A stretch of 12,369 nt of DNA from a virus. Its lineage: Duplodnaviria; Heunggongvirae; Uroviricota; Caudoviricetes. The stretch's first letter is position 1, and the number at the start of each line of letters is the position of its first letter. Below the pieces are notes generated by a model. It was not told the origin of the DNA. It saw only the letters and a program-made list of their open reading frames with translations, and did not search any database. Shown piece by piece: positions 1,690-11,301 of this stretch. The position numbers and the translations under genes are program-made. The stretch is taken from positions 1 through 12,369 of IMG/VR virus record IMGVR_UViG_2923323785_000002; one strand, written 5' to 3'.

Positions 1690-1704
1690 TGGTGTCCCCT
1701 GCAG
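1690..1704. repeat. attR core: 15-bp direct repeat TGGTGTCCCCTGCAG identical to the 3' end of the tRNA-Arg gene
   Basis: Exact 15/15 match to 11287-11301; identity stops on both sides. Defines the left prophage boundary. Confidence 0.8.
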
Positions 1705-1761
1705 ACATCTACTTGACGAGGCAGGGGATTGATTGGAATGGTGTTTTTTAGATATGAGAAA

Positions 1762-1783
1762 TATTTTACCCGCTATTTTACCC
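1762..1783. promoter_or_regulatory. Two direct copies of TATTTTACCC (putative integrase arm-type sites) at the attR end
   Basis: TATTTTACCC at 1762-1771 and 1774-1783; the same 8-bp core (GGGTAAAA / TTTTACCC) occurs three times at the attL end (11126-11170). Confidence 0.45.
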
Positions 1784-1978
1784 ATTGGCGCGGCTTAAGA
1801 GCTTATTTTTGAATTCACAATGGTCACGATATAACCATCTTGCTCGCCCGTGGATAACTTTGGCTTTAGGCAGGTCTCCGGACTTAATCCGGTCATAGAT
1901 GAAGGTCTTACCAAAGCCAGTATCAGCCATGATGAATTTCAAATCAACCAGTGAATCAGGCTGTAGTTCGTGTTGCAT
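1778..1978 (-). CDS. torI: TorI-like recombination directionality factor (excisionase, AlpA/Xis-type small DNA-binding protein)
   Basis: 66-aa ORF (MQHELQPDSLVDLKFIMADTGFGKTFIYDRIKSGDLPKAKV...) recalled as KplE1 TorI; GGAG Shine-Dalgarno 9 nt upstream of the ATG; sits at the att-proximal end opposite the integrase, as in KplE1. Confidence 0.75.
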   Translation of the reverse strand: MQHELQPDSLVDLKFIMADTGFGKTFIYDRIKSGDLPKAKVIHGRARWLYRDHCEFKNKLLSRANG

Positions 1979-1997
1979 GAGTGCTATCTCCGAATAG

Positions 1998-2013
1998 GGA
2001 ATCGAACCTGCAA
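1998..2013. repeat. 16-bp tRNA-derived fragment (GGAATCGAACCTGCAA, T-arm portion of argW) inside the prophage
   Basis: Exact match to tRNA gene positions 11301-11316, same orientation. Together with the attR core it covers tRNA positions 11287-11316 but is split by 293 bp containing torI. Confidence 0.7.
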
Positions 2014-2023
2014 ATCAGGCAAT

Positions 2024-2046
2024 AAAAAACCGCCATCAGGCGGCTT
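2024..2046 (-). terminator. Rho-independent terminator (minus strand) downstream of the zinc-ribbon ORF
   Basis: Minus-sense reads stem CCGCC, loop TGAT, stem GGCGG, followed by a run of six T. Confidence 0.55.
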
Positions 2047-2109
2047 GGTGTTCTTTCAGTTCTTCAAATCGAATATTGGTTACATTGTTTTCATATATGA
2101 ATAAATAAA

Positions 2110-7832: not shown

Positions 7833-7856
7833 ACCCAGCTTCGGCTGGGTTTTTTT
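7833..7856 (+). terminator. Rho-independent terminator after ant
   Basis: Stem CCCAGC, loop TTCG, stem GCTGGG, followed by seven T. Confidence 0.8.
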
Positions 7857-7992
7857 ATGCCCAAAATTCACCGTAGCTACTCAGCGGCTATGGCCTTGAG
7901 AGATAGCACTACACAAAAAGTGTAGTGCAAAAAGCAAACAAATACTCACCGTAGCCATGCTGCGGCGATTCCTTGTATCTGGAGCAAATTAA

Positions 7993-9828
7993 ATGACAGA
8001 TATCACCGCAAATGTTGTGGTAAGCATGCCTTCGCAACTCTTCACTATGGCTCGTTCTTTTAAAGCCGTAGCCAATGGCAAAATTTATATCGGTAAAATT
8101 GACACTGACCCGGTAAATCCTGAAAACCAGATTCAGGTTTATGTGGAAAACGAAGACGGTTCTCACGTTCCTGTTTCGCAACCAATAATCATTAACGCTG
8201 CTGGATATCCGGTATATAACGGACAGATTGCCAAATTCGTAACTGTGCAAGGCCATTCTATGGCTGTTTATGATGCGTACGGTGCGCAGCAGTTCTATTT
8301 CCCGAATGTTCTGAAGTATGATCCTGACAGACTTGCTCAAAAACTGGAGAGTGAATTTGGAACTAAATATATAGGAGCTCCGTCAGGTGGCGGGACTCTT
8401 TATGATATGCTGTGGTTTGTAACTCCAGCACAATTTGGAGCCCCAGAAGATGGGAGCGATGCATCATCCTCATTACAGGAAATGCTTGATTACGCTACAC
8501 TAAACGGTAAGGCAGTATTATTCGATAAAGCGATTACATATAACATAGAAAAGCCGTTAATATATAAGCAAAAAGGATTTCGTAACAGCCGTATTCTTTG
8601 CTATGGTGGACGAACAGTAATAAATCTAAACTCTTCAACAGCGACTTCCGGATTGCCTAATGATGAAAGCGGAATTGTTATGGATGTTAATGCTGCAATT
8701 GTTGTGTCGTCAACAAACCCGGACACCGCGGTAGTAAACCAACCACAGGCTGTATATATAGAAGGGTTGCAATTCACTTCAACTGCTGGCGGTTCCTACG
8801 GAATTTACCTTGGGAAAACACAGAACACAAATATTAACGATTGTAAGTTTACAGGATTCACTGAAGCTGATATCTGCGATAACGGTTCATGGGTATTCAG
8901 AGTTCATGGCTGCCAAATTTTTAGCGCAGCCAACTACGGTATATGGAAAAAAGCAGGTACATCTGCATGGATTACAGAATGTTATTTCCAGAACTCTAAC
9001 TATGCGGTGCGAATGAAGAGTGGGTACTCTGTTATATCCAAGTGTGCTAATGATTTTACTAAAAATGCCGCATATTGGCTTGAGTCATCGGATTATAACA
9101 GTGTATATACTATTGATGAGTGTGGTTTTGAGAACTCAGGTTCAGATGCTGTTGTTAAAGTTTCTGGGCGTATTGCACTCACATGGTCTAACTGTATGGC
9201 CGGTAACATTGAATCTCAACAGTCACCTGTTCCTACAAATTTACTCTGGGTTCAGGGCGACAGCAACGGTTCTCAGTTTACACTGAGCAATATTAGATTC
9301 CTCAATACTGGTCGTCGCATATGGGATTTAGGGACTAATAGCCGCTTCACCATTAACCGTGTCAACCATGCCTCAGGTGACTTAGCGGATGTATGGGGGG
9401 ATGGGGCGCTTGTCAATGAAAACACCTATAACACCACCAAGTATATGTCCTCCGCCTACCCCAATGGTTTTCAGATTGGACCAACAGGACTTAGCGACTG
9501 GTTCTCATCAGGCGGAAACACTGGCTCATTACCAAACGACCAAAGATTTTTGAGGTACTCCAAGACGATTACCAGAGCATCTGGTCAGAGTTTTGGAACA
9601 ACAACAATAACGTTACCATTTCAGTTGAGTGTCGATGGTGAGGGGTATCAGGTTATTGTCACTCCGAGAGAGTATCCAAATAACGTCCCTACGTATCAAT
9701 GGCATTGCGCAAGTTATAATCATACATCCACTGATGTTCAGATTATAGCTGGTCGTGGTGATGGTAACACAGCATGGTCAACAGTTATTGTTGACATATT
9801 AATAATTGGAAAAGCGATAAACTTTTAA
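7993..9828 (+). CDS. Tailspike protein: P22-like head-binding domain plus divergent beta-helix receptor-binding domain
   Basis: First ~110 aa match P22 gp9 by recall ([50 protein letters not shown]); the remaining ~500 aa are unrelated to P22 and have the composition of a beta-helix depolymerase (frequent N/G/S/T, short repeated strands). GGAG 8 nt upstream. Confidence 0.85.
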
Positions 9829-9959
9829 TTGCTCAAAGGCATGAGGTCTGTCATCCAATCATCAATCTAACGATGGCTTGTTGTGGCTGATGAGATAAAA
9901 ATGAGACACACAACGATTTTGCATTGACTCGCAAGGCTTTGTGCTCTTCGATAGTGGTT

Positions 9960-9981
9960 AAGGTGGATCACTCCACCTTTT
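9960..9981 (+). terminator. Possible terminator hairpin for the tailspike transcript, overlapping the integrase 3' end
   Basis: Inverted repeat AAGGTGGA tcac TCCACCTT followed by TT; short U-tract, so weak. Confidence 0.35.
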
Positions 9982-11125
9982 CATCAAGCCAGTCTGCCCA
10001 CCACTGCATCATTTCTCTGCGCTTATCAAGATACTGAGCATGGTTGTAAATTCCACGCACAGATCCGCCGTTGGCATGTGCCAGTTGCACTTCAATAGCG
10101 TCAGCAGGCCATTCGTGCTCGTTCATAATCGTGCTGAATTCATGCCTGAATCCGTGACCGCTTTCCAGACCCTCATAGCCGATTTGTTTGATCACAAGCA
10201 ATACCGCGTTCTCGCAGATTGGCTTCTTCTTATCGTTGCGCCCGGCAAAAACAAACTCTGATACTGGTTTGGTGATTGAGCTTAGCGTAGTGAGAAGTTC
10301 AACTACCTGGTCTGACATAGGAACCACATGAATTTTGCGTCCCTTCATCACATTGGCGTCGATGGTGATAATCCTGTTTTCAAAATCGACGTTCTTCCAT
10401 TGCATGGAACGAAGCTCTTTCGTTCTTAGGGCTGTATAGCGTAAAACTTTGGTCGCAATGAGCGATACGATGCTTCCTGAAAATGTTGCCAGTGCTTTGT
10501 TAAATGCCGGGATCTGGTCTGCAGGAAGAAACGGGAAGTTTTTCTTGCGGTATCCCTTCATGGCGTCAGCAAGGTCAGGTGCCGGGTTATATTTAGCCCT
10601 ACCAGTGACAATAGCGTAACGGAAAACCTCGCCGCATCTTCTGCGGGCTTTATTTGCTCGCTCCATTGCACCGCGATCTTCAAATCTGCGGATTACTTCC
10701 AGCAGTTGCATCGGCTCAATATCCTGAATTTCAAGGCCGCCGATGATAGGTAAAATGTCGTCATCAAACATTTTTGCAAGTTCAGTCGCATACCCTACTG
10801 ACCATACTTGCTTCTTGTGCTCGTACCATTCCTTGTAAATCGCACTAAAGGAATTGTTGTTAGACGAAGCCTTTTTCGCCTTTACCGGATCGATGCCAAC
10901 CGAGATGTCTTTCCTCGCAGTCCATGCCTTATCCCTTGCCTCCTGCAAAGTCATTAGCGGATATTTTCCTACGGTCAGGATTTTCTCCTTACCGTCAATC
11001 TTGTAGCGAAGCTGCCATACCTTTTTCCCGGATACAGGGACATAAAGGTACAGGCCATTACCATCGAGAAGGCGGTATGGTTTTTCTTTCGGCTTTGCTG
11101 CTTCAATCTGCTTAACAGTGAGCAT
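9968..11125 (-). CDS. intS: Tyrosine integrase, IntS-like (KplE1/CPS-53 family)
   Basis: 385 aa from the ATG at 11125 (MLTVKQIEAAKPKEKPYRLLDGNG...); C-terminal catalytic region (...HGFRHEF...LAHANGG...GIYNHAQY); adjacent to the 3' end of argW. The ORF track extends to a GTG at 11161. Confidence 0.85.
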   Translation of the reverse strand: MLTVKQIEAAKPKEKPYRLLDGNGLYLYVPVSGKKVWQLRYKIDGKEKILTVGKYPLMTLQEARDKAWTARKDISVGIDPVKAKKASSNNNSFSAIYKEWYEHKKQVWSVGYATELAKMFDDDILPIIGGLEIQDIEPMQLLEVIRRFEDRGAMERANKARRRCGEVFRYAIVTGRAKYNPAPDLADAMKGYRKKNFPFLPADQIPAFNKALATFSGSIVSLIATKVLRYTALRTKELRSMQWKNVDFENRIITIDANVMKGRKIHVVPMSDQVVELLTTLSSITKPVSEFVFAGRNDKKKPICENAVLLVIKQIGYEGLESGHGFRHEFSTIMNEHEWPADAIEVQLAHANGGSVRGIYNHAQYLDKRREMMQWWADWLDEKVE

Positions 11126-11170
11126 GGGTAAAAATCCGGTGGGTAAAATTATTTTATCCACTTTTTACCC
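11126..11170. promoter_or_regulatory. Three copies of GGGTAAAA (two direct, one inverted) over the integrase start region: putative arm-type sites
   Basis: GGGTAAAAA 11126-11134, GGGTAAAAT 11141-11149, TTTTTACCC 11162-11170; same motif as at the attR end. Confidence 0.45.
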
Positions 11171-11286
11171 GTCATGGAGTGCGGCTGTCAACGATCTGAC
11201 GCGAACCATTACGAACTGTGAATCTACGGAAGGCTTGATATTCAGGGGATTTTGCGGACTGGTACGGATTGGAACGAACTGATAAA

Positions 11287-11301
11287 TGGTGTCCCCTGCA
11301 G
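11287..11301. repeat. attL core: 15-bp repeat TGGTGTCCCCTGCAG (3' terminus of argW)
   Basis: Identical to 1690-1704. Confidence 0.8.

Follow-up and report, generated by a model that had tools for sequence, protein, structure and literature searches.

The DNA analysed here, referred to as the window, is a stretch of 12,369 nt (positions 1 to 12,369 of the IMG/VR virus record IMGVR_UViG_2923323785_000002) with an element inserted at the Escherichia coli tRNA gene argW. This locus raises two questions: what kind of element occupies the tRNA gene, and how did it come to be so small? A sequence-only reading had described it as a KplE1-like cryptic prophage that decayed independently and kept recombination, regulation and receptor-binding functions. 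Our analysis leaves little doubt that the element is the remnant of a P22-like temperate phage of about 38 kb (Sf6/HK620/CUS-3/Kapi1/HZ41 group), which integrated at argW and subsequently suffered two internal deletions. As a virus, the element is dead, and it represents an ordinary case of a known kind of genomic fossil.

The element is a discrete insertion at argW

The two ends of the element are embedded in host DNA as follows:

1-1248, plus strand: cscB (sucrose permease), host flank outside the element (415-amino-acid open reading frame, ORF)
1690-1704: attR core, the original argW 3' end left by integration, equivalent to pawZ of K-12 (exact repeat, aligns to pawZ)
11287-11361, minus strand: argW, tRNA-Arg(CCU), the single tRNA gene of the window (ARAGORN, Rfam tRNA, repeat)
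11437-12369, minus strand: yfdC, host flank outside the element (annotated as yfdC in all compared genomes)

An exact 15-nt repeat, TGGTGTCCCCTGCAG, occurs only twice in the window, at 1690-1704 and at 11287-11301, and a match to it was obtained in none of 200 shuffles of the window. The right copy is identical to the last 15 nt of argW and represents the attL core. The coordinates 1690-11301, which had been assigned to the element from sequence alone, correspond to the outer edges of the two copies, and the insertion itself (the interval between the repeats plus one repeat copy) has a size of 9,597 bp. The DNA of cscB is 99.5% identical to the region annotated as 'cscB: sucrose MFS transporter' in OHT76-1. 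Other direct and inverted repeats (D1, D2, D5-D7, I1-I5) were short and imperfect and were set aside as chance occurrences; D7 (2865-2892) lies inside the O gene described below.

For an empty-site test, window positions 1520-1704 were joined in silico to 11302-11480, and the resulting 364-nt sequence was searched for in 5,426 complete E. coli genomes. This collection was used for all genome searches described below. The reconstructed site was recovered without interruption and at 100% identity from many genomes, and at least 80% of it is present at one place in 1,415 of them (about a quarter). Since joining the flanks recreates a site that is unoccupied in other genomes, the element is a discrete insertion. 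The empty site is regained only by removal of positions 1705-11301, i.e., by a crossover in the 15-mer. Together with the exactness of the repeat, this agrees with the earlier assignment of the 15-bp repeats as the recombination cores. With host DNA on both sides (cscB and yfdC) and both att sites inside the window, the element is contained in it completely and therefore cannot be a slice of a larger prophage.

The recombination module is nearly identical to that of KplE1

The following features make up the two ends of the element:

1705-1777: attR arm (P arm), from the core to the torI stop codon (4 substitutions relative to attR of K-12 KplE1)
1778-1978, minus strand: torI, recombination directionality factor (excisionase) gene, adjoining attR (66 amino acids; phrog_66 excisionase)
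9968-11125, minus strand: intS, tyrosine integrase gene, adjoining the argW copy (arm-binding, central, and catalytic Pfam domains)
11126-11286: attL arm (P' arm), overlapping the intS promoter (6 substitutions relative to K-12)

The sequence-only reading had recognized the end architecture of KplE1, with IntS at attL and TorI at attR, and the comparison with K-12 is in full agreement with this view. TorI is 100% identical to its K-12 counterpart, IntS shares 383 of 385 residues (99.5%) with K-12 IntS and likewise with CUS-3 Int, and the att arms, compared by overall sequence identity, are almost the same as in K-12. The gene intS reads away from the tRNA gene and has attL beside it, which is the KplE1-type arrangement. 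The 63 nt preceding its ATG are identical to PintS/attL of K-12, and a consensus scan placed a promoter-like site at 11175-11148. The similarity extends to HK620, whose int/attP/torI region is 96.5-98% identical to the ends of the element (98% between its attP and the attR arm) and whose record annotates the att core at ATGGTGTCCCCTGCAG. The KplE1 core was published with a length of 16 nt, CTGCAGGGGACACCAT (PMC2951348). The sixteenth position differs at attR (C at 1689 versus A at 11286), where the host flank is unlike that of K-12. Because of this difference the exact repeat comprises only 15 nt, and the duplication of the module core CTGCAGGGGACACCA(T) at the 3' end of argW is exact in 15 of 16 nt.

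The recombination module is functional in KplE1 and HK620, and KplE1, which is devoid of a cI module, can be excised in vivo (PMC2951348, PMC3509656). A module with attP located between int and the gene for the recombination directionality factor, and with the intS promoter over attL, is conserved in HK620, Sf6, and CUS-3 (PMC2951348, PMC3509656). The overlap of attL and PintS has been described for KplE1 (PMC2951348), and Kapi1 integrates at the same att site (PMC8787464). We propose that the ancestral phage integrated into the 3' end of argW via IntS at the core CTGCAGGGGACACCA. Because attP sits between int and the excisionase gene, this event would have placed intS and torI at opposite ends of the prophage. 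Judging from the near identity to these experimentally tested parts, IntS and TorI, together with host IHF, can probably still excise the element at the 15-nt core, as in K-12 KplE1, and probably also reintegrate it. Expression of intS would be autoregulated from the promoter overlapping attL (PMC2951348).

Two deletion scars account for the small size of the element

Between these ends, the retained segments are collinear with HZ41, Kapi1, CUS-3, and HK620, and the shared DNA is 92-99.8% identical. The best-matching relatives change along the element:

1690-2505: torI, eaG, and eaA-like region of HK620 and HZ41 (up to 99.8%)
2503-4100: O and helicase module of HZ41 and the Shiga toxin (Stx) phage YYZ-2008 (about 98%)
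4100-4978: 3' part of a 707-amino-acid gp16-type gene from the intact argW prophage of enterotoxigenic E. coli (ETEC) L4_E1441 (99.1%)
5718-6125: Kapi1 (97.8%)
6098-7877: mnt and ant of CUS-3 (92-96%)
7946-8327: tailspike head-binding domain of HZ41, Kapi1, HK620, and CUS-3 (90-93%)

The following features meet at the two deletion junctions:

2386-2505, minus strand: DUF551 (eaA-like) gene, 3' fragment, cut by deletion 1 (aligns to the 3' end of HK620 hkaE and to HZ41 9876-10361, up to 2505)
2503-2505: deletion junction 1 (3-nt microhomology ATA)
2503-3260, plus strand: O-like gene for a replication initiator, devoid of codons 1-21 as well as of ribosome-binding site and promoter (Pfam Phage_rep_O, phrog_345)
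3257-5026, plus strand: chimeric ORF of 589 codons, helicase'::'gp16-type (Pfam DnaB and DnaB_C; phrog_6704)
4100: deletion junction 2 (1-nt overlap, in frame)

At junction 1, the left parent (the tail of the DUF551/eaA-like gene on the minus strand) matches up to position 2505, and the right parent (O) matches from position 2503. Position 10361 of HZ41 is thereby joined to position 18261, with about 7.9 kb missing relative to this phage. In related phages, the lost interval contains early-left genes, kil, cIII, N, pL, cI, pR, cro, and cII. As a result of this junction, the O gene, which is 98% identical to its counterparts in YYZ-2008 and HZ41, starts at codon 22, without start codon, ribosome-binding site, and promoter (pR). 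In complete genomes, the gene in which matches stop at position 2505 is a DUF551 gene in most of the genomes listed and encodes a dATP/dGTP pyrophosphohydrolase domain protein in others.

At junction 2, the helicase gene ends after codon 281 of 458, and the gp16-type gene begins at codon 410 of 707. The chimeric ORF is composed of codons 1-281 of a DnaB-type helicase gene and the last 308 codons of a gp16-type DNA-ejection gene, fused in frame. Accordingly, Pfam DnaB and DnaB_C (profile positions 2-104 of 255) are matched by residues 1-280, and positions 410-706 of the 707 positions of phrog_6704 by residues 282-578. The helicase part extends through the Walker A region. The first 293 of the 308 gp16-type codons align to positions 410-702 of the 707-amino-acid reference, while the extreme C-terminus differs; the argW prophage of ETEC L4_E1441 contains an intact relative of this length. 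Judged by the maps of HK620 and Kapi1, about 20-21 kb were lost at this junction, which comprise the remainder of the helicase gene, nin, Q, the lysis, terminase, portal, scaffold, coat, head-completion, needle, and tail accessory genes, gp7, gp20, and the 5' part of gp16. Hence, the lambda-O/DnaB module noted in the sequence-only reading is present but broken, O lacking 21 codons and the helicase being cut at codon 281 of 458 and fused.

The remaining 9.6 kb, the 7.9 kb, and the about 20.6 kb add up to about 38 kb, compared with genome sizes of 38.3 kb (HK620), 39.0 kb (HZ41), and 39.4 kb (Kapi1). Based on these alignments, the two deletions appear to have removed about three quarters of the prophage and would explain its small size. 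Pfam and PHROGs searches revealed no terminase, portal, coat, lysis, Q, N, cI, or cro gene among the ORFs of the window, in line with the earlier statement that the virion genes had been lost, and no cI/Cro-type repressor was found among them, small and overlapping ORFs included. A viable prophage has virion, lysis, and immC genes; this set was not found, and we classify the element as a defective remnant of the Lederbergvirus family.

We envisage that two illegitimate, lineage-specific deletions took out the middle of the integrated prophage at some later time. The first one (about 7.9 kb) would have joined the tail of the eaA-like gene to codon 22 of O, at the expense of pL, pR, N, cI, cro, cII, kil, and the recombination genes. 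The second one (about 20-21 kb) would have joined helicase codon 281 in frame to gp16-type codon 410. What remains is the intact recombination module and the immI circuit, along with several minor accessory genes and a tailspike gene that is intact but promoter-poor. A consensus scan found no promoter-like site upstream of the chimeric ORF, and both O and the chimera are predicted to be silent. After excision, the resulting circle would be neither replicated nor packaged, and excision would amount to loss. It should be unable to replicate, given that O is devoid of expression signals and that the helicase breaks off behind the Walker A region. P22-like phages carry a pac site in the terminase region, and because this region is gone the circle should not be specifically packaged either. 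Given what is missing, neither lysis nor particles would be expected from the element.

The immI circuit is complete

The region upstream of the tailspike gene contains the following features:

6085-6336, minus strand: mnt, Arc/Mnt-family repressor of Pant (Pfam Arc, 3.3e-10)
6365-6411: overlapping divergent promoter-like sites, Pmnt leftward and Pant rightward (consensus scan, 9/12 matches each)
6442-6582, plus strand: arc (Pfam Arc, 2.9e-09)
6579-6821, plus strand: ORF of 80 amino acids between arc and ant (gene call on other contigs; no family match above the cut-off)
6816-6883, minus strand: sar, antisense RNA over the ant ribosome-binding site (Rfam RF00262, 81.2 bits versus a gathering score of 43)
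6885-7814, plus strand: ant, antirepressor gene, full length (Pfam P22_AR_N, 2.1e-44; P22_AR_C, 5.5e-30)

A full immI region had been proposed before, and mnt, arc, sar, and ant are indeed all present. The mnt gene is 95.7% identical to CUS-3 mnt at the DNA level. Pmnt and Pant were assigned by their position and by analogy with P22 immI. A promoter-like site for sar (10/12 matches plus an extended TG) is located at 6919-6891, inside the start of ant, and its terminator at 6851-6820; ant is followed by a terminator-like hairpin at 7832-7851. As in P22 immI, mnt is divergent from arc/ant with overlapping promoter-like sites in between, the ribosome-binding site of ant is covered by the antisense RNA sar, and ant is followed first by a terminator and then by the tailspike gene. 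Unlike P22 immI, an additional 80-amino-acid ORF separates arc from ant, and the immC repressor on which Ant would normally act is absent from the element. The retained regulation referred to in the sequence-only reading is thus confined to immI, whereas the main immunity region (cI/cro) is gone.

In P22, Mnt represses Pant, and Arc and sar limit ant. By analogy, the immI circuit of the element should be self-contained, with Mnt keeping Pant, and hence ant, off. If it became derepressed, Ant, which has no cognate repressor in the element, could attack the repressors of other lambdoid phages.

An intact tailspike gene with a rare receptor-binding part

Downstream of immI follows the last large gene before intS:

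7993-9828, plus strand: tailspike gene, intact (611 amino acids; Pfam Head_binding, positions 1-113 of 113, 1.6e-68; Beta_helix)

In agreement with its earlier designation as a P22-type tailspike gene, the protein has a complete head-binding domain of this type (amino acids 1-113), followed by a beta-helix receptor-binding part (amino acids 114-611). Matches in the PDB were restricted to the N-terminal domain (N-domains of the Sf6 and P22 tailspikes), and no solved relative of the receptor-binding part was found there by sequence. The DNA encoding this part (8332-9825) has no match in the complete E. coli genomes. Relatives of the 611-amino-acid protein with 95-100% identity are contained in a large protein collection. 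Moreover, receptor-binding parts with 91-94% identity occur on proteins of 624-633 amino acids that have a different N-terminal domain (PF18668), three of which are encoded on contigs of about 43-48 kb. The receptor module is exchanged between phage types, which is the usual shuffling, and this tailspike provides a small example of it. With the ant terminator in front of it and with the late promoter and Q lost, the gene is probably hardly expressed.

The deletions are specific for one lineage

Probes of 81 nt across each junction were compared with the complete E. coli genomes. None of them spans junction 1 or junction 2, the matches ending exactly at positions 2505 and 4100, as would be expected from the independent decay suggested earlier, and none contains at least 80% of the window in one place. 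The exact chimeric protein, on the other hand, is encoded on at least 20 contigs, which stem from several sequencing projects. Four of these contigs (from ERR1937246, ERR4899487, SRR25477365, and GCA_012082495.1) were compared and are 100% identical to the window, and one of them, an independent contig of 70 kb, is so over all 12,369 nt. As the element is identical on every compared contig and its junctions occur in no complete genome, it is real and marks one clonal lineage. The clean, datable scars could be used as clonal markers, as could the chimeric ORF, which is specific for this lineage; the significance of the element beyond annotation is small.

On the carrier contigs, the genomic context is dsdA-dsdX'-cscRAKB-element-argW-yfdC-mlaA. 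The csc sucrose genes stand in place of dsdC and most of dsdX in this lineage. The interval from cscB to attR contains, immediately beyond the original end of argW, a fragment (1391-1480) that is annotated elsewhere as a partial DUF4942 gene and that may have been left by an older island at this tRNA gene. Two draft contigs with the element stop inside torI (window positions 1947-1950), a hint that another torI-like copy may exist in those genomes.

An IntS-type gene (at least 80% coverage) is present in 1,857 of the 5,426 complete genomes, about a third. Five other complete E. coli genomes (OHT76-1, 1EC187, GPEC87-32-644, 1070/13, and LR-21-1) contain differently deleted P22-like remnants at argW. 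All five have kept intS and a tailspike gene, and torI is present in all four whose examined stretch reaches the far end; this shared retention of end genes may in part be an ascertainment effect, since the query contained those genes. IS1 or IS3 is found at the scar in three of the five. Hence, decay of P22-like prophages at argW is common, and the element is one more independent instance of it.

Small accessory genes of the interior

The remaining genes of the element are small:

2110-2289, minus strand: eaG-like small zinc-ribbon gene of the early-left region (phrog_2945; weak Lar-like Pfam match)
5087-5293, minus strand: gene for a YobH-like small membrane protein in accessory 'moron' position (Pfam YobH, 7.6e-10; phrog_21022)
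5304-5693, minus strand: gene for a 129-amino-acid protein, N-terminus signal-peptide-like by eye (phrog_2651)
5719-5904, plus strand: gene for a 61-amino-acid protein (97.8% DNA identity to Kapi1 33201-33608)
5879-6088, minus strand: gene for a 69-amino-acid protein (phrog_16466)

The eaG-like gene corresponds at 99.8% DNA identity to a gene for an 'Eag protein' in 1EC187 and is called as a 59-amino-acid gene on other contigs. The four small genes between 5087 and 6088 fill the interval between gp16 and mnt, which is the accessory-gene position of P22-like phages, and gave no match to a known defence family. The gene underlying the DNA that matches the 61-amino-acid protein is named 'hemolysin XhlA family' by PGAP in other genomes, and the 129-amino-acid protein had no match in Pfam, PADLOC, or NCBIfam. 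NCBIfam gave no further information on the small ORFs or the tailspike. With PADLOC, no meaningful defence match was obtained, only weak P-loop matches to the helicase part and coiled-coil noise.

Alternative explanations

No observation contradicts the interpretation of the element as a decayed P22-like prophage, but some findings weigh against it. The retained genes show no point-mutational decay, which fits a recent deletion but would also fit selection on some of them. There is no sequenced phage that matches every segment, and the ancestor was pieced together from a mosaic of relatives. Finally, the receptor-binding part of the tailspike, while aligning end to end, is at most 33% identical to that of any phage in GenBank.

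The first of these findings leads to the idea of a domesticated element, in which the host keeps useful genes and the gene set is shaped by selection rather than by the positions of the deletions. Candidate functions would be an action of Ant in trans on the repressors of other lambdoid prophages, an effect of TorI on TorR, a role of the small envelope proteins, or use of the tailspike gene as a reservoir for recombination. All retained ORFs are intact, and five other independently deleted argW remnants also keep intS, the tailspike gene, and, where covered, torI. Furthermore, K-12 TorI has a host-directed activity on the tor operon (PMC3509656), and cryptic prophages can benefit their host (PMC3105296). 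But the identity of the contigs and the 92-99.8% identity to living phages indicate recent deletions, after which intact ORFs are expected even without selection. In addition, the common retention of the end genes is partly an artefact of the query, no defence system was matched, and the tailspike gene stands behind a terminator and has lost its late promoter. We found no positive support for domestication and consider it unlikely. Slightly less weight still is given to a further idea, according to which the element and similar argW remnants are not neutral debris but are kept as an excisable cassette that acts in trans. If this were true, Ant freed from Mnt would inactivate the repressors of co-resident or incoming lambdoid phages, and the rare tailspike gene, located between a conserved head-binding segment and the int region, would donate a new receptor specificity to incoming P22-like phages.

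It is very improbable that the element is a phage satellite similar to the phage-inducible chromosomal islands (PICI), small by design and depending on a P22-like helper phage. A size of about 10 kb, a tRNA site, an integrase and an excisionase of its own, and an O-like replication gene would suit such an island. Both reductions in size, however, are scars in the middle of genes (O without a start, the helicase cut at codon 281, and a fragment of an ejection protein fused to it), and these junctions are confined to one lineage. The terminase region is absent, and Pfam and PHROGs revealed no primase, AlpA, packaging, or capsid-redirecting genes among the ORFs.

Equally hard to sustain is a composite of two elements, or a different att core, with torI derived from an older neighbour. 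This possibility is raised by a second exact repeat of argW sequence:

1998-2013: 16-mer GGAATCGAACCTGCAA, identical to argW 11301-11316, located 19 nt upstream of the torI start codon

This repeat goes beyond chance, and its argW copy directly adjoins the 15-nt att core. Moreover, the GenBank record of CUS-3 (CP000711) labels the 16-mer as 'attL core' and 'attR core' (1-16 and 40192-40207). But the 16-mer is found at the same place upstream of torI in the free phages HK620 (1677-1692), HZ41 (9416-9431), and Kapi1 (311-326; all in the numbering of the compared stretches), whose genomes contain no host DNA. It is also present in K-12 (11776-11791 of the compared stretch) and in the five remnants or contigs that reach this position. 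The empty site demands a crossover in the 15-mer (removal of 1705-11301), a crossover in the 16-mer would leave argW without its 3' end, and the att sites of HK620, KplE1, and Kapi1 have been reported as 15- to 17-mers (PMC2951348, PMC8787464). In MS7163, the DNA of which is identical to the right end of CUS-3, the start of torI lies 20 nt beyond the point at which the CUS-3 record ends (1408-1628 of the MS7163 stretch). As the record was delimited at the 16-mer, torI and the real attR were left out of it; that it was set at the wrong repeat may be useful to curators. The 16-mer was rejected as an alternative att core and as a sign of a tandem element, since free phages carry it and the empty site fits only the 15-mer. 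In our view, it is not a recombination site but either a relic or a portion of the regulatory sequence in front of torI. Every member of the IntS/TorI module, free phages included, thus carries the last 30 nt of argW in two halves with 293 bp between them, which contain torI and the attR arm, and this split may record how the unusual int-attP-xis order arose.

That the window shows a piece of a complete prophage or an assembly artefact can practically be dismissed: nothing was found in its favour apart from the two draft contigs that stop inside torI, while both att sites, both host flanks, the empty site, the independent 70-kb contig with 100% identity across the region, and three more contigs in agreement all speak against it.

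Comparison with known elements at argW

The decayed P22-like prophage described here resembles three kinds of elements that share its integration site. Like KplE1/CPS-53 of K-12, it occupies argW, uses the same core, has intS beside the tRNA gene and torI at the opposite end, measures about 10 kb, has no cI repressor, and possesses near-identical att arms. The interior had been considered different from the K-12 CPS-53 set, and this view is upheld by blastn against K-12 2464500-2479500, which returned matches only for window positions 1690-2028 and 9833-12369; between 2029 and 9832, blastn found no DNA match to CPS-53. K-12 CPS-53 keeps yfdG, yfdH, and yfdI (gtr-type), tail-fibre remnants, and yfdK-T. 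The element, in contrast, keeps eaG, the truncated O gene, the helicase'::'gp16 chimera, accessory genes, immI, and the tailspike gene. The possibility that both are the same element was rejected, as the interior genes that would have to be shared (yfdG-I, tfaS, yfdK-T) gave no match in blastn.

The other argW remnants are similar to the element in that the ends are kept where covered, the tailspike gene is kept, and the middle of the prophage is lost. All five share the site, and OHT76-1, 1EC187, GPEC87-32-644, and 1070/13 also share the flank on the cscB side; the stretch of LR-21-1 examined stops short of that end. The remnants differ from the element in their deletion endpoints and in the receptor-binding domains of their tailspikes, and they contain neither of its two junctions. 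Its scars are clean microhomology joins, as opposed to the IS1 or IS3 copies at some of the other scars. The argW-dsd/csc locus can be viewed as a graveyard of P22-like prophages that lose their middles and keep their IntS/TorI ends, which is a known pattern.

Compared with the argW-integrating Lederbergvirus phages HZ41, Kapi1, HK620, CUS-3, and Sf6, the gene order is collinear, and the shared segments comprise torI/att/int, eaG, O and helicase, mnt/arc/ant, and the tailspike head-binding domain. Unlike these intact phages, the element has lost about 28 kb, including immC, the early-left region, nin, Q, lysis, and nearly all morphogenesis genes. The designation KplE1-like therefore fits the int/att/torI module only; by its gene order and DNA similarity, the element as a whole is best described as a Lederbergvirus (P22-like) remnant.

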